From Escherichia phage UAB_Phi78: a DNA stretch of 43,984 bases. Every line of letters begins with the position of its first letter. The first letter of the stretch is position 1. The DNA is taken from the sequence record GU595417; one strand, 5' to 3'. The translations under genes were made by a program, and so were the position numbers. Positions 27,786-43,665 of the stretch are shown one piece after another. The notes beneath the pieces were generated by a model. The model saw nothing but the letters and a program-made list of their open reading frames with translations. It made no database searches and had not been told where the DNA came from.

Positions 27786-28505
27786 ATGGCAATAGGTACT
27801 GCCCTTACAGCAGGCTTGTCCAGTGTAGCAGGTAGTGCTGCATCGGGTGGCTTCCTGTCTTCGTTGGGTGGTGCTATTGGTGCAGAAGGGATAATGGGTT
27901 CTGCCATGAGTTTCTTAGGTGGAACCACTGGAGGGTTCTCTAATGCTGGTCTCCTGTCGGCAGGTATGCAAATGCTTAACCCGATAGGGGACTACTTCAC
28001 GCAGAAAGAAACAGCGAAGGCGATGAAGAAGGCACAAGAGGAGCAATGGCGTCAGCAGTTGATAGCCACAAGAGAGGCTTATGCTTCCGTGGCTAATGCT
28101 GAAAGGTCGGCCTCTAAACAATATCATTCTGAACTAATAGACAATCAGGTATCCTTATTACAGCAAAGAGCACAAGTTGCCTTACTTGCAGGTGCGAGCG
28201 GCACAGGTGGTAACTCTATCACTTCTATGCTGAATGACCTGACAGGTGAAGCTGGTAGGAACCAAGCCACCATTATTGACAACTATGAAACACAGCAGAT
28301 TAACTTTGCTAACCAACTCAAGTCTATCCAGAAGGGTGGTCAGATGATGATGCGTTCATTTGAGAAGCCGTCTGCATTCAGCGCACTAGCCAAAGGCATG
28401 TCTGGTGTAGGCGAGGCTTACCTGTCTGGTCATCAGAAAGGTACAGCACTTAGCAAGGCTTGGTCTGATTCTAGGACATATTCATCAGGAACAAGAGGAG
28501 TTTAA
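27786..28505 (+). CDS. internal virion protein
   Basis: 239 aa, Gly/Ala/Ser-rich N-terminus; AAGAGGAGAG RBS. Confidence 0.7.
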   Translation: MAIGTALTAGLSSVAGSAASGGFLSSLGGAIGAEGIMGSAMSFLGGTTGGFSNAGLLSAGMQMLNPIGDYFTQKETAKAMKKAQEEQWRQQLIATREAYASVANAERSASKQYHSELIDNQVSLLQQRAQVALLAGASGTGGNSITSMLNDLTGEAGRNQATIIDNYETQQINFANQLKSIQKGGQMMMRSFEKPSAFSALAKGMSGVGEAYLSGHQKGTALSKAWSDSRTYSSGTRGV

Positions 28506-31442
28506 ATGGCAATTGAACGTCAAGCTGTACAGGGCTTACGCCGAGTGCAGTCTACTGGTGGGCCAAGTGCTGCTAGTTTTGCGACTCGTCAGGTTGGGGT
28601 GCAAGAGACTAGTGCATCTGGTAGCCGCTTTCTTGAAGACCTTGTAAATGCTGCTGGCAGTTTGGCGACTGTCACTACTTCTATCCTGAACCAAAGGGTG
28701 GAAGATGATAAGGTACGACAATACAACCGGGCGTTAACTGGCCTGATGCCAACTGAAGATGCAACGGTTGGTGGCGCTCGCGCACACATGCTTGTCAGCT
28801 TACAAAATGACATCATCGCGCAAACCATGCAACTGTCCGATGATGCACAGCGTTTTGATGGTGATGACAGCCAATGGGAAGATCACGTTATCAACGCACG
28901 CATGGCTGTTCAAGACCGCCTGTGGGATACCTACCCTGAACTGCGTGGAGATAAGGAGTCCATGCGGGTAGTAACTAACGCCTTCATGGAGCAGCAACCT
29001 AAGATCTTTGCAGCAAGAGAGACTGCCAAGTTGAAGCAGGAAGCTGAATCTCGTATCAAGTCTATGGAATCTCGCATTCTGTTGGCTACACGTGATGTTC
29101 CTGGAGAAGCTATGGGTGATGCCTTGAATCAGTTGCAGAAAGAAGCTATGGCTATGCAAATCACCAAGCAGGAGTTTGATGCGCTGGTTTCTCAGTTGGC
29201 ATCTAATCGTGCAGCTATTGGTGATGATTCTATGATTCAAGGAACCAAGGCTCTCAAGGATGAGAATGGAGTGTCACTTTATGACCGAGTAGGTCAGTTG
29301 CAGACAGGTGAGATTCAGGCCAACCGAACATGGGCGGCGCAGAACCAAGTGGCGCTCTTTGAGAAGAAGGATGCTGCAATCAAAGCCTTTGAGGCTGGAC
29401 AGCTTAACCGTGAGCAGCTACTTCAGGTTATGCAGAACCATAATGAAATCTCAGGGGGCACTGCTTGGTCTGATAGCGAGATCAAATCTTTATTTGATAG
29501 GCAAGCTAAGGTTCGTGCTGAGTCTGCCAAACTAGAAGACTTGGTGGCCCGTGGTGAACATGGCTCTCCTTTAGGCTTGCAAGACATCAGCAAGGAAGAC
29601 CGCAAGGCGTATGCTGGTGCATTGGTTGATGCCTACACCAAGTTGGCCAATGACGAGATAACTCGTACCGGAGCTACTGGTGAAGAAGCTGAGGCCATCC
29701 GTGGACGCTATGAGCAGATGCGATACGCCAAGCTGGGGCAGCAGTTGATTGAAGACCCCATCATCAAAGAACGATATGGCTCGCTAATGCAACTATCTTC
29801 TGCCAACCTGAAAGATATGAAGGTTGAACCTGAAGCATTACAGACTATTATGCGAGCACGTGATTCTATCCCGGAAGATGCACGCCGGGCGGTGATGGGT
29901 GACAAGGAGTATGCCTTTGCGGAGAACTATGACTTGGCTACACGCATGGGTTATACGCCGGGGCAGGCCATAGAGTTTGCACAGAATGCATCGCGTGGCG
30001 ATAAGCTTCCCGGTTCTGTTATGAAAGAATTGAATGATGAAGTCGATGGTGTAGTTAGCGATGTGGCTAGTGGTAGCTGGCTTACGCGTGGCGACAACAT
30101 GAGCGACATGGGACGTGATCTTATGTTAGAAGAGGCAAACCAGATTGCCCGCTCTATGAAGGTTGCAGGTCATAACAATGACACCATTAAGCGACATCTT
30201 AAATCTTTCCTACAGAATCAGTACACTCAACTATCTGAAGGTTTCTTCACTCAAGGTGTTCTGGTCAAAGGTGATGTGAGAACGCTAGGTGACACTATAG
30301 GCACCAACCAAGGAGACGTACCTACGGTATTACGTCAGTACCTTGACAACCATAAGCAAGCCTTGCTGGATGCATCTGGCGGTATGGAAGAAGGAGACTT
30401 GTACTTTGATGTAGACTCTAAGCGCGGTATGTTTACAATACGTGCTGGTTCTGGTCGTGTACCAGTTACTCCAGCTATGCCTTTGTCTGAAATCAAAGGA
30501 CAGGACTTACTGAAGGAGCACTACGAGAAGGCAGTGAAAGAGCGCGATGAGGCTAAGAAGAACTTTGAAGCTAATCAGATGCGTATGTGGGGTGCTGGCG
30601 GGTATCAAGCTCCTGCACCAGAAAAGACTACAGCTAAGACTGTAGGTTCCCGTGGTATCGCTGACTTCCTCATGTCACCAGCCTTTGCATCAGGTGAGAA
30701 TCTACCTTCCAACTTTGAATTCAACTACAAGAGGAATAACATGGACTTCTACAATTATGTAGCTAAGACCGAGAACGGGGCCAACGTAGGGTTCGACCGA
30801 GTAGCTGGTGTATACACTCCGTACAAAGATGCACACGGTCAATCTGTGGGCTACGGTCACTTCCTCACGGAGGAGGAGAAGAAGAATGGATACATCACTA
30901 TTGGCGAAGATAAAGTACCATTTGCACCGGGACAATCTCAGTTAACACCTGAGCGTGCAATGCGCCTGCTTGAGCAGGACATGAAGAGTCACGTACCTAG
31001 CACAAAGGATTGGGCTGTACCTTTTGATGCAATGCATCCGGGAGTGCAACGTGGCCTCATGGACTTGTCTTATAACTTAGGCAAGGCTGGCATCAAGAAT
31101 GCGCCAAAGGCTTATGCAGCATTCAAGGCTGGCAAGTTCACTGATGGGTTTATCGAGATGCTGTCTACTGCATCTACTGAAGGTAAGCGCAGTTCAGGTC
31201 TGCTAGTTCGCAGGGCAGAAGCCTATAACCTTGCACAAAGCGGAGGTGCTGTTCCTAAGATTAGCGAAGTGGAGACGAGGGAAGATGGCTCCATGTACGT
31301 TAGGTTCTCAGGTAACATGTCAGAAGCATTTGTGAGCAAGTCTATCCTTGGCAAGATAGGCAAAGATGGGTGGATGGAAGTCTACCAGCCTAAAGCAGGA
31401 GCACTTGCAAGCGGCACCAAAGTGGGTCGCATTAAACTGTAG
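28506..31442 (+). CDS. internal virion protein with C-terminal lysozyme-like domain
   Basis: 978 aa; YKDAHGQSVGYGHFLT matches the T4-lysozyme-family pattern YKD..G....G.GH.LT. Confidence 0.8.
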   Translation: MAIERQAVQGLRRVQSTGGPSAASFATRQVGVQETSASGSRFLEDLVNAAGSLATVTTSILNQRVEDDKVRQYNRALTGLMPTEDATVGGARAHMLVSLQNDIIAQTMQLSDDAQRFDGDDSQWEDHVINARMAVQDRLWDTYPELRGDKESMRVVTNAFMEQQPKIFAARETAKLKQEAESRIKSMESRILLATRDVPGEAMGDALNQLQKEAMAMQITKQEFDALVSQLASNRAAIGDDSMIQGTKALKDENGVSLYDRVGQLQTGEIQANRTWAAQNQVALFEKKDAAIKAFEAGQLNREQLLQVMQNHNEISGGTAWSDSEIKSLFDRQAKVRAESAKLEDLVARGEHGSPLGLQDISKEDRKAYAGALVDAYTKLANDEITRTGATGEEAEAIRGRYEQMRYAKLGQQLIEDPIIKERYGSLMQLSSANLKDMKVEPEALQTIMRARDSIPEDARRAVMGDKEYAFAENYDLATRMGYTPGQAIEFAQNASRGDKLPGSVMKELNDEVDGVVSDVASGSWLTRGDNMSDMGRDLMLEEANQIARSMKVAGHNNDTIKRHLKSFLQNQYTQLSEGFFTQGVLVKGDVRTLGDTIGTNQGDVPTVLRQYLDNHKQALLDASGGMEEGDLYFDVDSKRGMFTIRAGSGRVPVTPAMPLSEIKGQDLLKEHYEKAVKERDEAKKNFEANQMRMWGAGGYQAPAPEKTTAKTVGSRGIADFLMSPAFASGENLPSNFEFNYKRNNMDFYNYVAKTENGANVGFDRVAGVYTPYKDAHGQSVGYGHFLTEEEKKNGYITIGEDKVPFAPGQSQLTPERAMRLLEQDMKSHVPSTKDWAVPFDAMHPGVQRGLMDLSYNLGKAGIKNAPKAYAAFKAGKFTDGFIEMLSTASTEGKRSSGLLVRRAEAYNLAQSGGAVPKISEVETREDGSMYVRFSGNMSEAFVSKSILGKIGKDGWMEVYQPKAGALASGTKVGRIKL
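30282..30303 (+). promoter_or_regulatory. internal SP6-type promoter-like sequence inside the internal virion protein gene
   Basis: acgctaggtgacactataggc matches the consensus core TAGGTGACACTATAG exactly, with a divergent upstream end. Confidence 0.5.
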
Positions 31443-31508: not shown

Positions 31509-34500
31509 ATGGCTGACGATATTAGCCAAAGCTGGGTGACGGTATCTCAACGCAGGTTGCCGCCTACCTTTGCACAAGTGGCAGAAGCCGAGCGTAAGCT
31601 TGAAGAACAAAGAGCTAACGATAAGGTCATGCAGACTGCACTGGAAAGCGAATGGGCGCTATACGGTGGTCAGCGTGCTATTGAACGGCATACAACGGAG
31701 TTTGCCGAACAAGAAGGCTACACAGTTCCTGAGTCAACAAAAGATGAACTGTCAAAGATTCATGGTTTTGAAATTGCACAGGATATTGTGAAGGATGTTA
31801 AGTCACCAGAAGAATTGCAGTTCCGTATGTCCAATGCGATGGCAGACAAGGAGCGGTCGGAGATACTTGCACGTAATGGATTTACAGGGTTTAGCGCACA
31901 GTTAGCTGCTGGTATTCTTGACCCAGTTGGTTGGGCTGCTTCTATGGTTGCCGCCCCTGTAGCTGGTGCAGTCAAGGTCGCCCGTGTCGGTCGTATCATA
32001 AAGACGGCAGCAGTGGCTGGTGCCGAGAACGCAGCATTGGAAGCCATCCTAGCCAGTGGTGATTACCAGAAGGGCGCAGATGATGTGCTGGCTGCTGCTG
32101 GCTTTGGTATGATAATGGGTGGCACTATCGGGGCAGCCACACGTGAACGCATCGCCAGAAAGCCGGGAGTACAAGGCGTGAATGATGGTGCTGAAGCAGT
32201 GGTAGATGACTTGGATACTGTCGTGAAAGGTGCTGATGAGTTTGATGCATCTGCGGCCAAGGCTGTGCGTGAGGCTATGGAGTATGACGCTTACATGGCT
32301 GTGCGTTCCTATGAACCGCTGAAGGCTAAGGAAGTGGATATGGATGTCGCAATCCTCTCCCACTTAGATGACCTGAAGGCGAACTCTAGCGTGCGTATGA
32401 GTGCCTCCGAGAAGGGTAAACTGAAGGAGCAGATACGTCAGCTTGAAGCAGAAGCCGCCACTATGAAAGGTAAGAAGGTAGATGCCGTGGCAGAAGCTGC
32501 TGCTGCTAAGGGTGCGCCTAAGTCTGCTGCTGACAGGCTGGACTTGGATGTTAAGAAGAAGGCACTGGCACGTCGCTTTGATGAGCCGCTTGCCGACATC
32601 CAAACAAGACTCGACGAGCTTAATGCTAAACTGGCCCGCGTGGAGAACGTAGGTAAGTCCAAGGAGGAGCTGAAGAGATTCTCTAGCTTAACTAGAGAGC
32701 AGCAAATCAAGGAGCTAGGGTTAGATGCTCCGGCTCGTAAAGTGGAGATGACAAGTGCGGTACGGGAAGCTCTTGCGGCTATACGTGCTGAGAAGAAGAA
32801 GACACCAACGCAGGCCCATGCCGAAGCTAAAGCACAGGCTGAAGAGGAAGTACGGCAGAAGCGAGATGATTCTATCGGCGCTAAACGTGTAGAGGATTCG
32901 GAAATTGCAGGCGAGCAGTTTGACCTGTCTGATAGCATGGAAGACCTTATGGACGACCTTGCACGCGAAGCCTATCAGTCTGAAGTTAGACCTGTGAATC
33001 TCAAGGGTCTTGGTTCTGTGTCTTCCGTGATTCTGAACTCAAAGAACCCTGTGTTTCGTGGCCTTGGCTTGCGACTGCTGGAAAACGCACAAGGTGGTGC
33101 CTACCAAGGCAAGACTGCCTCTATCTTATCTAACGTATATGGTAACTTGATTCGCTTTGCGGAGAAGAACCGATACAATGATGGCTTCTCTCAGTTCATC
33201 AAGGATAACAACCTACGTGCTGTTGATTACCTGAACCCTGCTGTTACGAGAGACTTTAATAACCAGATTTACACTGCTATTGTCAAAGGTATACCTGATG
33301 ATACACCACGTGGTGTTAAGCTTGCTGCTGAAGGTATCGCAGATAAACTGGCTAAGTCCCTTGAAATTAGAAAGGCTGCTGGTGAGAAAGGCTTCGAAGA
33401 TGTCAAGTCAGCACGTGACTACATCCCTGTAATCTATGATGGTATCAAGGTAACTGAAGCAGTCAATAGGCTGGGTAGCAGCGAGGCGGTTATTGCCCTG
33501 TTGTCCAAAGGTTATCAGACTGGTAAGTATAAGATGGGCAAGAAGGCAGCAGATGCACTAGCTAAGGTTCAGTATATCCGCGCCTCCGACTCAACCTTAT
33601 CAAGTCGTGTGGCCTTTGACAGGGTAGTATCGCAGCAACAACAAGCACAGCTTATTGAAGACCTGAAGAAGGCAGGTGTGCCTGATAACATCATCGATAA
33701 CTTCATTGAAGGCACTGAGTTGCAAGAGATGGCGGAGTCCGTATCTAACCGAGCTAAGGCAAGCATGGGTATCAATACTCAGGCTGAATATGGCGGGATG
33801 AAGGTTCAGGACTTGCTCAACACTAACGTAGGTGAGTTGGCGGAGAACTACGGCAAAGAGGCAGCAGGCGGTGCAGCTTTGGCGGCGATGGGCTTCCCTA
33901 CCCGTCAGTCTGTATTGAATGCGATTGACGCAGCAGAACGCGCAGGACGTAATATGGCGGGTGCTGACGCCAAGGCAATCAAACAGCTTAGGGCGGAATC
34001 AGAAATGCTCAGGGACTCCGTGAAGCTCATATACGGCAACACTATCGACGCAGACCCAAATGCTGGTATTGTCCGAGGGACTCGCCGTGTACGTGAAATC
34101 ACTGGCCTGTTGCGTTTGGGTCAGATGGGCTTTGCACAGGTGCCGGAGTTGGCCCGCGCCATTACCAAGATGGGAGTGGGTACAGTGCTGAAGTCGATAC
34201 CTGCCACGAAGTTCTTACGCTCCCGCGCTGGACGTAAGGGTGGAACAGCACAAGGTGAATTACTTGAGCCTGAACTGAGGGAGATGGAAGAACTCATAGG
34301 CTACATCGGAGAAGACAACTGGCTATCAGGTTGGAACGTAAGGCACGATGAGTTCGGCGAGACCGCTGACAACATGGGGCGTCTGTCCGCCATCATCGAT
34401 AATGGGCTAGCTATGGGTAGCCGTATTAACACATGGCTGTCTGGTTTCAAGGCAATACAGGGTGGTTCTGAGAAGATTGTAGCACGCTCTATCAATAAGC

Positions 34501-35321
34501 GACTCAAGCAACATTTGATGGGTGAGCGGGAGCTACCTAAGCGTGACCTTGAAGAAGTCGGTTTGGATGAGGCTACCATGAAGCGACTCAAGCGCCACTT
34601 TGATGAGAACCCGATGTATGCCGACTATAATGGTGAGAAGATTCGAATGATGAATTTTGACGCTATGGAGCCAGACTTACGAGAAACCGTAGGTGTGGCA
34701 GTACGCCGTATGTCAGGTCGTCTTATTCAGCGTAACTTCATTGGCGATGAAGGTATCTGGATGAATAAGTGGTGGGGTAAGGCTCTTACTCAGTTTAAAT
34801 CATTCTCTATTGTGTCTATTGAGAAACAGCTTATTCACGACTTGCGTGGTGATAAGATTCAGGCAGCACAGATTATGGCATGGTCTTCCTTGCTGGGCTT
34901 TGCATCATACGCTACACAGATGCAGATGCAGGCAATTGGACGAGAAGACCGAGACAAGTTCTTACGGGAGAAGTTTGATACACAGAACATCGCTATGGGT
35001 GTATTCAATAAACTTCCACAAGTAGCTGGCTTTGGCCTAGCTGGAGATGCCTTGGCAACATTCGGCCTTATGCCTGACTCCATGATGCAGGCACCGGGTC
35101 GTATGGGCTTCCGCCAGCAAGGATTTGGCGACTTGGTGGCTGGTGCTGGTGTCATAAGTGATGCTGTGAACTTGTCACAGGCTTTAGTGAAGTACGCCAA
35201 TGGGGACGACGATGTTTCCACTAGGCAGTTAGTAGATAAGGTACGACGTCTTGTGCCTTTGGCAAATACGATTGGTGTAGGTCAGATGACCAAGGCCAGC
35301 GTAGACTTATTGGAGGACTGA
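31509..35321 (+). CDS. internal virion protein (large, T7 gp16-class)
   Basis: 1270 aa; TAAGGAGGT RBS; position equivalent to T7 gp16. Confidence 0.8.
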   Translation: MADDISQSWVTVSQRRLPPTFAQVAEAERKLEEQRANDKVMQTALESEWALYGGQRAIERHTTEFAEQEGYTVPESTKDELSKIHGFEIAQDIVKDVKSPEELQFRMSNAMADKERSEILARNGFTGFSAQLAAGILDPVGWAASMVAAPVAGAVKVARVGRIIKTAAVAGAENAALEAILASGDYQKGADDVLAAAGFGMIMGGTIGAATRERIARKPGVQGVNDGAEAVVDDLDTVVKGADEFDASAAKAVREAMEYDAYMAVRSYEPLKAKEVDMDVAILSHLDDLKANSSVRMSASEKGKLKEQIRQLEAEAATMKGKKVDAVAEAAAAKGAPKSAADRLDLDVKKKALARRFDEPLADIQTRLDELNAKLARVENVGKSKEELKRFSSLTREQQIKELGLDAPARKVEMTSAVREALAAIRAEKKKTPTQAHAEAKAQAEEEVRQKRDDSIGAKRVEDSEIAGEQFDLSDSMEDLMDDLAREAYQSEVRPVNLKGLGSVSSVILNSKNPVFRGLGLRLLENAQGGAYQGKTASILSNVYGNLIRFAEKNRYNDGFSQFIKDNNLRAVDYLNPAVTRDFNNQIYTAIVKGIPDDTPRGVKLAAEGIADKLAKSLEIRKAAGEKGFEDVKSARDYIPVIYDGIKVTEAVNRLGSSEAVIALLSKGYQTGKYKMGKKAADALAKVQYIRASDSTLSSRVAFDRVVSQQQQAQLIEDLKKAGVPDNIIDNFIEGTELQEMAESVSNRAKASMGINTQAEYGGMKVQDLLNTNVGELAENYGKEAAGGAALAAMGFPTRQSVLNAIDAAERAGRNMAGADAKAIKQLRAESEMLRDSVKLIYGNTIDADPNAGIVRGTRRVREITGLLRLGQMGFAQVPELARAITKMGVGTVLKSIPATKFLRSRAGRKGGTAQGELLEPELREMEELIGYIGEDNWLSGWNVRHDEFGETADNMGRLSAIIDNGLAMGSRINTWLSGFKAIQGGSEKIVARSINKRLKQHLMGERELPKRDLEEVGLDEATMKRLKRHFDENPMYADYNGEKIRMMNFDAMEPDLRETVGVAVRRMSGRLIQRNFIGDEGIWMNKWWGKALTQFKSFSIVSIEKQLIHDLRGDKIQAAQIMAWSSLLGFASYATQMQMQAIGREDRDKFLREKFDTQNIAMGVFNKLPQVAGFGLAGDALATFGLMPDSMMQAPGRMGFRQQGFGDLVAGAGVISDAVNLSQALVKYANGDDDVSTRQLVDKVRRLVPLANTIGVGQMTKASVDLLED

Positions 35322-36280
35322 TGAGTTATACTTTCACAGAACACACAGCGGTAGGTTCTCAGACGACTTATCCGTTTAGCTTTGCTGGTCGCGACAAGGG
35401 TTACATTCGCGCATCAGATATTATTGTGGAAGTGTTTCATGAAGGAGAGTGGAGTATTACACATGGTTGGGTGCTATCTGGCACCCACCAGATTACCTTC
35501 AATGTAGCACTACCAGAAGGGACTAAGTTCCGCATACGTCGAGATGTAGCCAAAGAGTACCCTTACGCGGAGTTTGATAGAGGTGTGGCTCTTGATATGA
35601 AATCATTGAACAACTCCTTCATTCATATCTTGCAGATCACACAGGAGATTCTTGATGGCTTCTATCCAGAAGGTTACTTCGTCAAACAGAATGTATCTTG
35701 GGGCGGGTACAAGATTACCGACCTAGCTGATGGCACAGACCCTCACGATGCAGTGAACAAAGGTCAGCTTGACGCAATAGACAGGAAGCACACTGAGTGG
35801 AATGAACAGCAAGATATTGCAATTGCTGGACTCAAGGCAGGTATGACATCAGGCATCTCTCACCGAACAGTGCCTTGGGTTACGGTAGCGGCTGGTGGAG
35901 AGCAAGTCATTAGACCACCTTACATCTTTGAATCGGCCTTGGTTTTCCTTGATGGAGTGTTGCAGCATGAACTGTCAGGTGCAGTTACTATAGCTAACAG
36001 CACTCTCACTTTCTCCGAGCCACTACGTCGTGGCACAGAAGTGTATGTATTGATAGGTAGTCGTATTGCAACATCTTCACCGGGTCTGCATATGGAGTTC
36101 AACAAGGACTTAGATGCAGGAACTACGGAGGTTAGGATTGGTATGGCGTTCTCCCATATTGATATCTACCTTGATGGCCTGTTCCAACCTAAGTCAACTT
36201 ATCAAATAAACGGCGATCTTGTTACATTCTCCGAGGGTGTACCAGCTTGCCATATGTCAGCGGATGTAGTCACTTTATAG
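35321..36280 (+). CDS. tail fibre/tailspike adaptor protein (T7 gp17 N-terminal-domain-like)
   Basis: 319 aa; start overlaps the upstream stop; sits where the tail-fibre gene lies in T7, but is too short to be a fibre itself. Confidence 0.7.
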   Translation: MSYTFTEHTAVGSQTTYPFSFAGRDKGYIRASDIIVEVFHEGEWSITHGWVLSGTHQITFNVALPEGTKFRIRRDVAKEYPYAEFDRGVALDMKSLNNSFIHILQITQEILDGFYPEGYFVKQNVSWGGYKITDLADGTDPHDAVNKGQLDAIDRKHTEWNEQQDIAIAGLKAGMTSGISHRTVPWVTVAAGGEQVIRPPYIFESALVFLDGVLQHELSGAVTIANSTLTFSEPLRRGTEVYVLIGSRIATSSPGLHMEFNKDLDAGTTEVRIGMAFSHIDIYLDGLFQPKSTYQINGDLVTFSEGVPACHMSADVVTL

Positions 36281-36288
36281 GAGGTAAG

Positions 36289-36483
36289 ATGGTTGATTCC
36301 GAACTGGTTAGCGGCGGGATGAAGTTAGCGCCATCTGCCTTAGTCTCAGGTGGGTACTTCCTCGGCATCAGTTGGGACAATTGGGTACTGATTGCGACAT
36401 TCATTTATACTGTGTTGCAAATCGGCGATTGGTTCTACAGCAAATACTCGTTATGTAAGGAGAAGAAACGTGGCAAGTCATAA
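36289..36483 (+). CDS. putative holin (single transmembrane segment, 64 aa)
   Basis: ATG 36289 with TAGGAGGTAAG RBS; one transmembrane segment ISWDNWVLIATFIYTVLQIGDWFY and a basic C-terminus; same position as T7 gp17.5. Confidence 0.55.
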   Translation: MVDSELVSGGMKLAPSALVSGGYFLGISWDNWVLIATFIYTVLQIGDWFYSKYSLCKEKKRGKS

Positions 36484-39110: not shown

Positions 39111-39398
39111 ATGGCTAAATATGGTGAAGGTTCTGTTACTGGTCAGGCTTTTCGAGTAAAGGCAGTACAAACTATTGCAACGGCAATCCCCATGCCTGTT
39201 GTTGCTGAAGCAGACCTTAAGAAGAAAGATCACCCTATCAACATTAAACACCTATCTGGTAAGCAGAAGGGTGCGATGATTGCTGTTGAGAAAGAAGGCC
39301 CAACCCTGTATATTGCTATTGCACGTGGTAGTGAACCTACTGACCCTTGGGATACAACCACTATGGAGGGAGACCCTGTCACTCCAACAGGGGACTAA
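39111..39398 (+). CDS. hypothetical small protein, paralogue B (95 aa)
   Basis: AGAGGAGGA RBS; paralogous to the upstream gene. Confidence 0.65.
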   Translation: MAKYGEGSVTGQAFRVKAVQTIATAIPMPVVAEADLKKKDHPINIKHLSGKQKGAMIAVEKEGPTLYIAIARGSEPTDPWDTTTMEGDPVTPTGD

Positions 39399-39400
39399 TA

Positions 39401-39745
39401 ATGCTTAACAAGTACTTCAAGCGTAAAGAGTTCGCTTGCCGTTGTGGATGCGGCACATCCACTGTTGATGCTGAATTACTACAGGTAGTCACAGATGTGC
39501 GTGAGCACTTTGGTGCTCCTGTGGTTATCACTTCTGGGCATCGCTGTGCTAAGCACAACTTAAATGTTGGTGGCGCTCGTGGCTCCAAGCATCTGCTTGG
39601 CATTGCTGCTGACATTAACGTGAAGGGTGTATCTCCTATACGGGTGCGAGAGTACCTATGCAATAAGTATCCTGACAAGTACGGCATTGGTGCTTACACG
39701 AACTTCACACACATCGATGTGCGCTCTAACAAGGCTAGGTGGTAA
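39401..39745 (+). CDS. endolysin, zinc peptidase M15 family
   Basis: SGHRCAKHN...GSKH...AADI...THIDVR zinc-binding His/Asp pattern of M15 peptidases; ATG 39401 (the track starts at 39347). Confidence 0.8.
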   Translation: MLNKYFKRKEFACRCGCGTSTVDAELLQVVTDVREHFGAPVVITSGHRCAKHNLNVGGARGSKHLLGIAADINVKGVSPIRVREYLCNKYPDKYGIGAYTNFTHIDVRSNKARW

Positions 39746-40334: not shown

Positions 40335-40414
40335 AGAAGTATAGTGCCGTTCTTTTGAGCGGCCTATTACTCACCAGTCTTCATGGGGATGGCTGGATAT
40401 TAATAGGAGGTTTA

Positions 40415-42067
40415 ATGTCATTAACTAAACCACGTTGCTTCAGGAAGGCAAGCTATCTAAGTCAGTTAGGCACTTTGCAGAATCTAGCTAACACTGGAGA
40501 TGACGTACTTGTTATCGATGTTGACTACGAGTTCACTAACGGAGAGACTGTAGACTTCAAAGGTCAACTGGTTCGTATAGAGTGCGAAGCTAAGTTCATT
40601 GGTGATGGTGCTTTGATCTTCACTAATATGGCTAGTGGTTCTGTGGTAGAAAAGCCTTTCATGGAAAGCAAGTCCACACCTTGGGTTATTTACCCTTGGA
40701 CAGAAGATGGAAAGTGGATTACAGATGCACAAGCTGTTGCTGCTACATTGAAACAATCTAAGACCGAAGGATATCAACCGGGAGTCAACGATTGGGTTAA
40801 GTTTCCCGGACTTGAAGCATTGATGCCTCAAGAGGTGAAAGATCAGTATGTAGTATCCACACTGGACATCCGTGACTGCGTAGGTGTTGAGGTAAGACGC
40901 GCTGGCGGCCTTATGGCAGCTTATTTGTTTCGCAACTGTCATCACTGTAAGGTGATTGATTCTGACACCATCATTGGTGGTAAAGACGGAATCATAACCT
41001 TTGAAAACTTAGGTGGTGAATGGGGAATCGGTAACTATGCCATAGGTGGTCGTGTACATTATGGCTCAGGAAGTGGTGTGCAGTTCCTTCGAAATAATGG
41101 AGGTGCATCTCACAACGGTGGAGTTATTGGTGTAACCTCATGGCGTGCAGGTGAGTCTGGGTTCAAGACATGGCAAGGTTCTGTAGGTGCAGGTACATCT
41201 CGTAACTATAACCTTCAGTTCCGTGACTCAGTTGCACTGTCTCCCGTGTGGGATGGCTTTGACTTAGGCTCAGATCCAGGAATGGCACCAGAAGAGGACA
41301 GACCGGGAGACTTGCCTGTGTCTCAATACCCTATGCATCAGCTACCTAACAACCACATGGTTGATAACATCCTTGTTATGAATTCATTAGGTGTGGGTTT
41401 AGGTATGGATGGTCGCGGTGGATATGTATCTAATGTTACCGTACAAGATTGTGCAGGTGCAGGTATCCTTGCTTATGCATTCAACCGTACCTTCTCTAAC
41501 ATTACGGTGATTGACTGCAACTACATGAACTTCGATTCAGACCAGATAATCATCATTGGTGACTGCATCGTGAATGGCATCCGCGCCGCTGGTATTAAAC
41601 CTCAGCCATCTAAGGGTATGGTCATCAGTGCACCTAACTCGACCCTTAGTGGGATTGTAGGTAACGTGCCACCAGACCGTATCCTTGCAGGTAACATCCT
41701 TGACCCTGTGTTGGGTCATACAAGGATTAATGGGTTTAATAGTGACTCGGCAGAACTGAGCTTCAGAATCCACAAGCTTACCAAGACCTTGGATAGTGGT
41801 GCTATTCGCTCTACGCTGAATGGTGGGCCGGGTACAGGTTCTGCATGGACGGAGATGACTGCAATTTCAGGGTCAGCTCCAAATGCTGTCTCGTTGAAGA
41901 TTAACCGTGGAGACTTCAAGGCAACTGAGATCCCCGTGGCACCTACTGTGCTTCCAGATGAAGCGGTAAGAGACCACAACTCTATTGCGCTCTATTTCGA
42001 TCAGGAGGCTCTTTGGGCTTTAGTTAAGAAACCAAACGGAAGTCTTACACGAATGAAGCTTGCTTAA
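40415..42067 (+). CDS. tailspike, P22-like endorhamnosidase lacking the head-binding domain
   Basis: 550 aa from ATG 40415 (TAGGAGGT RBS). The C-terminal half matches the P22 tailspike as I recall it (DPGMAPE.DRPGDLPVSQYPMH...RIHKL.KTLDSGA...ALVKKPNG). Confidence 0.9.
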   Translation: MSLTKPRCFRKASYLSQLGTLQNLANTGDDVLVIDVDYEFTNGETVDFKGQLVRIECEAKFIGDGALIFTNMASGSVVEKPFMESKSTPWVIYPWTEDGKWITDAQAVAATLKQSKTEGYQPGVNDWVKFPGLEALMPQEVKDQYVVSTLDIRDCVGVEVRRAGGLMAAYLFRNCHHCKVIDSDTIIGGKDGIITFENLGGEWGIGNYAIGGRVHYGSGSGVQFLRNNGGASHNGGVIGVTSWRAGESGFKTWQGSVGAGTSRNYNLQFRDSVALSPVWDGFDLGSDPGMAPEEDRPGDLPVSQYPMHQLPNNHMVDNILVMNSLGVGLGMDGRGGYVSNVTVQDCAGAGILAYAFNRTFSNITVIDCNYMNFDSDQIIIIGDCIVNGIRAAGIKPQPSKGMVISAPNSTLSGIVGNVPPDRILAGNILDPVLGHTRINGFNSDSAELSFRIHKLTKTLDSGAIRSTLNGGPGTGSAWTEMTAISGSAPNAVSLKINRGDFKATEIPVAPTVLPDEAVRDHNSIALYFDQEALWALVKKPNGSLTRMKLA

Positions 42068-42150: not shown

Positions 42151-43665
42151 ATGATACAAAGATTAGGTTCTTCCTTAGTGAAGATGCCAAATGGTCTTAC
42201 ATTGACACAGTGGTTGCAGCCTGCAAACATCATCAAGGTAGATGATGCACCGTACAATGGAGACCTTATTGCTGCATATAATGCTGTTCCAGTTACAGGT
42301 AATTATGCTTTGGTTCTTACCAACCACACTTACAATGCAGTTGGCTTGTTCGATGCAGGTCGTAACACGAAGCCTAACATCACCATCATTGGTGCTGGTA
42401 TGCCTCAACTTGCAGGAGACAGATCGTCATTTGTTGCAGGTTCGGGTACTATCATTAAGGGTGCAGTAAAGAACTCCGCCAAGGGTTTCCAGATTGCTAA
42501 CCTAGGTATTGATTGTGGTAACACAGTTAGTCGTACAGATTACCAACCTGCACGCTTCGAAGACCCACTACAGATATATGGGTGTGGCGCTAATGCTAAC
42601 ATCTTCATCGATAACGTGAAATGCCTTAGTGCAGTTTCTGTAGATGAACGACCGGGAACACACAGCATTCTGCTTGAGCAGACTGAAGGTGTCACCATCG
42701 GCTATGTAGAGTGCATTGGTGGCTTTCACGGCCTAACCATCAAGTGCCGTAACCTACGTGGTGGGATTGCACATTGCTATGGTCAGTATGGTGATGGCTT
42801 CATCATCAAGTCCGATGCTGGTGGTGCAGCGAGTCACATCTACATGGAGCGAATTCAGGTAGGACACCCAGATCAGTCTATGTGGCCTGATGTGCACTTG
42901 GGTGGTATCTACGATGCGCACGATGGTGTAACCATTGATAGTGTTAGCATTGGTGAGTTGCATGTTGTACGAGGAACTTGGGGTCTGATACCTGCTGATA
43001 ACGCCACTGGCAATATCACCAACTTCCATATTGGACATTATGAGTGCCACCTTACTTACGGCAACCACTACTCCCTTGTTATCAACAACAAGGTTGTAGG
43101 TTGGACTATGGGTACTCACAACATCACGACCTGCTCAGGTGGTATCAAGGTAGACCCTGCATCAGTGTATGTGAACATAGGTACTGGTCGCTCTACAAAC
43201 AACACTGAAAGTGGGTACTCTCTTGGTGGCAACACCTTGATTCATGGTGAACTGATTGCAGATGCGAATGGTAAGTATGGTGTAGAGTATTCTGGTGGTC
43301 TAGGTCTTGATGTAAGTAAGATTCATGGATTCCAGAATCCACTTGGTACTTACTCAGGGTACTCTTCTGCTATCCAATCCCTACTGTGGCCTGACGCTGG
43401 GTTTGAAGCTATGGTAACAGGTAGAACTGTGACTTTACGTGGTTCACTCACTAAAGGCTCTACTGCATGGTGCGGTCAGGTGCTTGATGCTGTTAAGCCT
43501 ACACGAGACATTCGTATCTACGCATGGGCTGTTGGCATTGGTGGTTCAATGGTTCCTGTGGAAGCATGGGTTCGTTCTGCTACTGGTGCTATAGATGTCG
43601 TAGGCAAGGATTCGGTTGGCGAAGGGCAGATTGTTAGCTTCACTGGCAGCTACATCTTCAAGTGA
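42151..43665 (+). CDS. second tailspike / receptor-binding protein
   Basis: 504 aa; AAAGGAGGTGA RBS; Gly/Asn/Thr-rich repeats suggesting a beta-helix; terminal position. Confidence 0.7.
   Translation: MIQRLGSSLVKMPNGLTLTQWLQPANIIKVDDAPYNGDLIAAYNAVPVTGNYALVLTNHTYNAVGLFDAGRNTKPNITIIGAGMPQLAGDRSSFVAGSGTIIKGAVKNSAKGFQIANLGIDCGNTVSRTDYQPARFEDPLQIYGCGANANIFIDNVKCLSAVSVDERPGTHSILLEQTEGVTIGYVECIGGFHGLTIKCRNLRGGIAHCYGQYGDGFIIKSDAGGAASHIYMERIQVGHPDQSMWPDVHLGGIYDAHDGVTIDSVSIGELHVVRGTWGLIPADNATGNITNFHIGHYECHLTYGNHYSLVINNKVVGWTMGTHNITTCSGGIKVDPASVYVNIGTGRSTNNTESGYSLGGNTLIHGELIADANGKYGVEYSGGLGLDVSKIHGFQNPLGTYSGYSSAIQSLLWPDAGFEAMVTGRTVTLRGSLTKGSTAWCGQVLDAVKPTRDIRIYAWAVGIGGSMVPVEAWVRSATGAIDVVGKDSVGEGQIVSFTGSYIFK

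Follow-up and report, generated by a model that had tools for sequence, protein, structure and literature searches.

The DNA analysed here is a stretch of 43,984 bp from Escherichia phage UAB_Phi78 (sequence record GU595417; the window in the following), which approximates the complete genome of an SP6-like Salmonella podovirus (genus Zindervirus, Molineuxvirinae). Within it, the open reading frame (ORF) at 28506..31442 on the plus strand very probably encodes an ejection protein of the SP6 gp36 type with a C-terminal GH24 muramidase, whose predicted catalytic residue, E756, is accompanied by D775 and S780 on the hairpin next to it, and which serves as an enzyme of entry and not as an endolysin. 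The product of 978 amino acids is an internal virion (ejection) protein, orthologous to SP6 gp36, in the position of T7 gp15 (internal virion protein C, IVP-C, the periplasmic tunnel). The presence of a virion lysozyme in such phages is already known from RefSeq annotation, from the 2004 SP6 genome papers and from reviews of virion-associated lysins.

The GH24 (T4/P22-type) lysozyme domain extends over approximately residues 735-915 (30708..31250, plus strand), as delimited on a structure model. Pfam PF00959 (Phage_lysozyme) matches residues 770-905 with an E-value of 6.4e-10 and a score of 39.9 bits, compared to a gathering cutoff of 22.3. To obtain a family profile, 27 full-length relatives were collected by an exhaustive HMMER search and aligned; no T4 lysozyme sequence was included. 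This profile matches solved GH24 lysozymes at an E-value of 1e-11 and T4 lysozyme at 7e-8. The Pfam score and the independent profile matches thus place the domain far beyond chance, and they confirm the assignment to the T4 lysozyme family that had been made in an initial annotation of the sequence. Single-sequence searches yielded far less. A word-indexed search with the C-terminal 263 amino acids returned three close matches only, and the exhaustive HMMER search was used instead. With phmmer, the full 978-residue protein found nothing in the PDB at an E-value of 0.01, and the domain alone gave only marginal matches to T4 lysozyme (E 0.015). Profile and fold searches were therefore needed to link the domain to GH24. 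By tblastn, the domain was found in 169 phage records, which comprise podoviruses of Salmonella, Escherichia, Klebsiella, Proteus, Erwinia, Pectobacterium and Vibrio.

The fold prediction agrees with this assignment. We modelled residues 716-978 with AlphaFold2 from an alignment of 47 sequences, which resulted in a mean predicted local distance difference test score (pLDDT) of 93.1 and a predicted template modelling score of 0.87. When this model was compared to the PDB with Foldseek, the top matches were all GH24 lysozymes, namely phage 21 R, DLP12 RrrD, T4 lysozyme, PHAb10/11 and an Acinetobacter prophage muramidase. In the model, the domain adopts a two-lobed alpha+beta lysozyme fold that can be superposed on the solved GH24 enzymes; the lysozyme fold expected by the initial annotation is thus also predicted from structure. 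The same annotation had placed the domain at 30800-31230 (residues 765-909). This range nearly coincides with the PF00959 match, but it begins too late to include the first domain helix and the predicted catalytic residue, whose codon lies about 30 nucleotides upstream of position 30800. Its description as the C-terminal part of the protein fits the location of the domain, but the lysozyme does not form the extreme C-terminus, as a module of 63 amino acids (residues 916-978) follows it.

The predicted catalytic glutamate and general acid, E756 (codon 30771..30773, plus strand), is aligned with E11 of T4 lysozyme. It stands at the C-terminal end of the first helix of the modelled domain (residues 741-757). 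Position 756 is Glu in 44 of the 47 domain homologues and is invariant among the full-length relatives (27/27). The motif YKDAHGQSVGYGHFLT, which the initial annotation had taken as the hallmark of the family, is found in the ORF at residues 773-788 (30822..30869, plus strand) and forms a beta-hairpin with model strands at 773-775 and 778-781. D775 (codon 30828-30830) and S780 (codon 30843-30845), both encoded on the plus strand, lie on this hairpin. HMMER pairs YKD...S.G.GH of the motif with Y18-K19-D20...T26...G30-H31 of T4 lysozyme. S780 is thereby aligned with T26, and this position is Thr or Ser in 44/47 homologues. The G-x-G-H turn is conserved, with G784 present in all sequences and a His at position 785 in 46 of 47. 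Further into the domain, D825, G859 and R902 correspond to D70, G107 and R145 of T4 lysozyme.

The second catalytic carboxylate is less clear, and several observations weigh against a canonical GH24 active site. The spacing between Glu and Asp is non-canonical: 18 residues separate E756 from D775, compared to 8 in T4 lysozyme, so that the pattern reads E-18-D-4-S rather than E-8-D-5-T. Furthermore, D775 is kept in only four of the 47 homologues, all from the SP6/K1E clade. Most relatives instead have an Asp at the column of Q779 (23/47), directly preceding the Thr/Ser, and the conserved Asp thus shifts between clades. In most of the more distant orthologues, PYDSD....DT stands in place of YKDAHGQS, which moves the conserved Asp accordingly. 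The alignment methods also disagree on the residue that matches D20 of T4 lysozyme: HMMER aligns it with D775, whereas MAFFT places D775 in a gap. In the model, D775 terminates the first strand of the hairpin, as D20 does in T4 lysozyme. The choice between hydrolase and transglycosylase chemistry depends on the identity of this second carboxylate. The same spacing, the same rarity of D775 and the same disagreement between HMMER and MAFFT would also fit a protein that has the same role in entry but acts as a lytic transglycosylase, releasing 1,6-anhydro-N-acetylmuramic acid (1,6-anhydro-MurNAc) like those lysozyme-fold enzymes that do not have a properly placed catalytic base. We regard such a transglycosylase as improbable compared to the muramidase.

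The non-canonical placement of the Asp would also be consistent with a lysozyme fold that is catalytically dead and serves as a structural or peptidoglycan-docking module, positioning the conduit in the cell wall. In addition, the muralytic activity of a T7 ejection protein is dispensable under standard conditions (PMC8954989). However, all 27 full-length relatives keep the catalytic Glu although they share no more than 16-49% identity with this protein, and conservation extends to T/S780, G784, H785, D825, N857 and R902. The domain is also, by codon comparison with SP6, under strong purifying selection: only two of its 31 differing codons change the residue, and across the whole gene 14 of 182 do. 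Moreover, SP6 gp36 is credited with virion muralytic activity, and the phiKMV gp36 domain is active, according to entries in a 2017 review (PMC5380687). A dead module is thus very improbable, and we retain the reading of an active muramidase.

Comparing the homologues, we observed features that set the domain apart from the free enzymes. About 10 extra residues, GFDRVAGVYT, are present between E756 and the YKD strand (insertion region at residues 757-772, nucleotides 30774-30821), and in the model they add extra beta structure. E756 is followed by Asn and not by Gly. This combination of 'E-N' and long spacing occurs in 25 of the 29 homologues in which the domain is attached C-terminally to a protein of at least 700 amino acids, whereas free canonical enzymes mostly have 'E-G' with a T4-like spacing. 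Known GH24 phage lysozymes (T4 gpe, the T4 gp5 tail lysozyme, P22 gp19, DLP12 RrrD and phage 21 R) share the fold, the catalytic Glu, the G-x-G-H turn and the equivalents of D70, G107 and R145, at an identity of 14-24%. Compared to these, the domain studied here adds the hairpin insertion after the Glu, the GYITIGEDKVPF hairpin and the 63-residue C-terminal module, and it is fused to an ejection protein of 700 amino acids, whereas the known enzymes are free or located on the baseplate spike.

The C-terminal module (31251..31439, plus strand) has a predicted beta-beta-alpha-beta-beta topology with a pLDDT above 90 in both the model of residues 716-978 and that of the full-length protein. We found no Pfam match for it even at an E-value of 10. 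When its profile was compared to the PDB, the only signal came from PQQ beta-propeller blades, as a sum of repeats that each stayed below the threshold; we judged this resemblance to be due to chance, caused by DG-x-x-x-F hairpins. The module is conserved in the orthologues of SP6, K1E, K1-5 and of Proteus, Klebsiella and Erwinia Era103-type phages, with G931 invariant and V935, F937, G958, W959 and G973 conserved at 90% or more. Relatives of about 900 amino acids that end at the lysozyme fold do not have it. A tentative and rather doubtful proposal is that the SP6/K1E-type virion lysozyme might constitute a distinct GH24 sub-type, characterized by the 'E-N' helix end, the hairpin insertion, the relocated Asp and the 63-residue module. 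The latter could possibly be peptidoglycan-binding, autoinhibitory or gp37-docking, which would time the activation of the enzyme before or after ejection. The catalytic register and this module are mainly of interest for the engineering of virion lysins or for modelling of the SP6/K1E ejectosome.

The carrier of the lysozyme is intermediate in size among the three internal core (ejection) proteins and holds the gp15 position. Directly upstream lies the gene of a T7 gp14-family internal virion protein of 239 amino acids, the outer-membrane component of the ejectosome (27786..28505, plus strand; Pfam PF24072 T7_gp14, E 7.7e-34; PHROG 805 'internal virion protein'), whose stop codon directly adjoins the ATG of the 978-residue gene. 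Downstream follows a gp16-like internal virion protein of 1270 amino acids (31509..35321, plus strand; PHROG 342, E 3e-248). At the nucleotide level, the lysozyme-bearing ORF is 99.8% identical to that of Salmonella phage vB_SenAt-pSL2 and 93.6% identical to that of SP6. Its protein matches PHROG 4290 'lysozyme domain-containing protein' over the whole length. SP6 gp36 (NP_853596.1) likewise has 978 amino acids, the same gene neighbourhood and 964 of 978 identical residues; two of the 14 differences fall in the lysozyme domain and three in the C-terminal module, and none affects E756, D775 or S780. The two flanking genes and the 99% identity to SP6 gp36 support the earlier identification of the carrier as an internal virion protein. 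It is also the second-largest ejected protein, as had been proposed, when its 978 amino acids are compared to the 1270 of its neighbour.

According to the full-length AlphaFold2 model (mean pLDDT 82.3), the protein is composed of four parts: a disordered N-terminus, a helical body of about 640 amino acids, a flexible linker and the C-terminal GH24 domain. The pLDDT falls below 50 at residues 1-58 and again at the linker (residues 694-701), and 74% of the body between them (residues 59-694) is helix. No Pfam or NCBIfam family matches the N-terminal body (residues 1-694; 28506..30587, plus strand), and none of the three ejection proteins is covered by an NCBIfam model. To recognize a gp15-like protein we used the criteria of Hardies et al. 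2016 (PMC4819975). The flanks formed by IVP-B (gp14) and IVP-D (gp16), the size and the extensive helicity are those of an IVP-C. However, we detected neither sequence nor fold homology of the body to T7 gp15, to the phiKMV gp36 body or to another solved gp15-like protein. The summed size of the three ejection proteins (239 + 978 + 1270 = 2487 amino acids) lies inside the published range of 2378 +/- 162 (bioRxiv 10.64898/2026.05.18.726046).

In T7, the muralytic domain is found on another ejection protein. T7 gp16 carries an SLT domain (PF01464) at residues 15-127, and the initial annotation had contrasted this arrangement with the one described here. The contrast holds: the 1270-residue gp16-like protein has no Pfam domain, and in its first 300 amino acids none is found even at an E-value of 10, SLT included. 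BLASTP shows that the protein is colinear with T7 gp16 from residue 77 onward, compared to residue 274 or so onward in T7, and its match to PHROG 342 covers profile positions 206-1227 only. We had considered a hidden SLT domain in this protein, as hinted at by its inherited name, and rejected it based on the missing Pfam match and on the offsets in the T7 alignment and the PHROG profile. From the absence of SLT in the gp16-like protein and the presence of GH24 in its neighbour we conclude that the muralytic module has moved from the N-terminus of gp16, as in T7, to the C-terminus of the protein in the gp15 position. In both cases the module sits on an ejected core protein and does the same job, the passage of peptidoglycan at infection; family (PF01464 compared to PF00959), carrier and protein end are different, and the chemistry presumably as well. 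The name 'with endolysin domain' given to the gp16-like protein was carried over from T7 gp16 at the level of the family and is misleading for SP6-like phages.

In the ejection proteins of Autographivirales, muralytic domains recur at three places, one of which is the C-terminus of the protein in the gp15 position; a lysozyme at this place on the periplasmic-tunnel protein was found in 31 of 127 genomes (bioRxiv 10.64898/2026.05.18.726046). For SP6, the product of gp36 is named 'lysozyme domain-containing protein' in RefSeq. A table in the 2017 review places SP6 Gp36 among the internal head proteins, ascribes lysozyme activity to it with reference to Moak and Molineux 2004, and counts it as part of the extensible tail; virion zymogram activity is attributed to SP6 with the same citation, and K1-5 and phiKMV gp36 are listed beside it (PMC5380687). 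The C-terminus of SP6 Gp36 has also been described as resembling cell-wall lysozymes, citing Dobbins 2004 and Scholl 2004 (PMC4837284), and a 2022 review places a lysozyme on the gp15-like proteins of K1E (gp35) and K1-5 (PMC8954989). The orthologues in K1E (gp35), K1-5 (Vectrevirus), Proteus, Klebsiella and Erwinia Era103-type phages share the architecture including the C-terminal module, and their hosts and tailspikes differ from those of the phage studied here. In the C-terminal 263 amino acids, the identity is 62-64% with K1E/K1-5 and 42-44% with the Erwinia phages.

The phiKMV-like phages provide a more distant comparison. phiKMV gp36 and Ar-KM gp42 have the same position in the ejection operon, a similar size (898 amino acids) and a C-terminal lysozyme domain. 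For phiKMV gp36, this domain is reported as an active lysozyme in the 2017 review's entry (PMC5380687). The alignment to phiKMV gp36 is limited to the lysozyme region and weak (hhalign E 0.015, phmmer E 0.83). The phiKMV domain has the Glu-Asp spacing of T4 lysozyme and is without the insertion of about 10 residues, and it has no PF00959 match at an E-value of 0.01. In Ar-KM, cryo-electron microscopy shows an outward-facing T4-lysozyme-like domain on the gp15-like tunnel protein; the stoichiometry of 4:8:8 for the ejection proteins also stems from Ar-KM and not from SP6 (bioRxiv 10.64898/2026.05.18.726046).

By analogy to T7 and to the phiKMV-like phage Ar-KM, the 978-residue protein would be ejected through the tail after the gp14-like protein at infection, and would help to build a conduit that spans the periplasm. 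Outward-facing lysozyme domains on this conduit would then cut the bonds between MurNAc and N-acetylglucosamine locally, and the local opening of the sacculus would let the conduit and the gp16-like protein reach the inner membrane. As in the analogous systems, the activity may matter most on a highly cross-linked sacculus, that is, in stationary phase or at low temperature.

A lysozyme in a phage genome could also be the endolysin that acts at the end of the cycle. Some public records point in this direction: relatives such as LL11 and ULINTec7 are labelled 'putative soluble endolysin' or 'putative endolysin', and PHROG 4290 is filed under 'lysis'. However, the domain ends a protein of 107 kDa whose gene belongs to the late structural block, with an internal virion gene on either side and no holin gene next to it. 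Separate lysis genes are present elsewhere in the genome, namely a T7-type class II holin (36247..36483; PF10746, E 1e-30), whose reading frame overlaps with the beginning of the small terminase ORF, and an M15_3 peptidase (39347..39745; PF08291, E 1.5e-32). The latter is likely the endolysin, and an M15 peptidase is treated as the SP6-type endolysin in the literature (PMC4837284; PMC12031403). Because of the separate holin and M15 peptidase we rejected the endolysin reading, to which we assign next to no probability, and we thus consider the protein in the gp15 position to be an enzyme of entry.

Labels of the orthologues are inconsistent in the public records and include 'hypothetical protein', 'baseplate hub subunit / lysozyme', 'tail lysin', 'putative soluble endolysin' and 'internal virion protein B'. 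The podoviruses labelled 'baseplate hub' do not have a baseplate. The practical value of our analysis thus lies in correct annotation, as many close relatives are still recorded as 'hypothetical protein', 'baseplate hub' or 'endolysin'.

Other features of the window were also noted. SP6-type genomes carry a direct terminal repeat. No direct repeat of at least 40 bp was found in the whole window, and the terminal repeat is thus not present twice here. A P22-type tailspike is encoded at 40355-42067 (PF09251, 1160 bits) and is followed by an ORF of 504 amino acids without a Pfam family (42151-43665). This ORF presumably encodes the second SP6 tailspike, the enzymatic activity of which is still described as unknown (PMC5380687). 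Scanning the whole window for the consensus of the SP6 RNA polymerase promoter, ATTTAGGTGACACTATAGAAG, with up to three mismatches, we detected nine matches, all on the plus strand (6447, 8980, 13100, 13561, 14720, 17866, 22833, 38666 and 40314); three are exact, and none would be expected by chance. There is no match between 22833 and 38666; the genes from capsid to terminase thus appear to form one late transcription unit, and the 978-residue gene lies within this structural unit.

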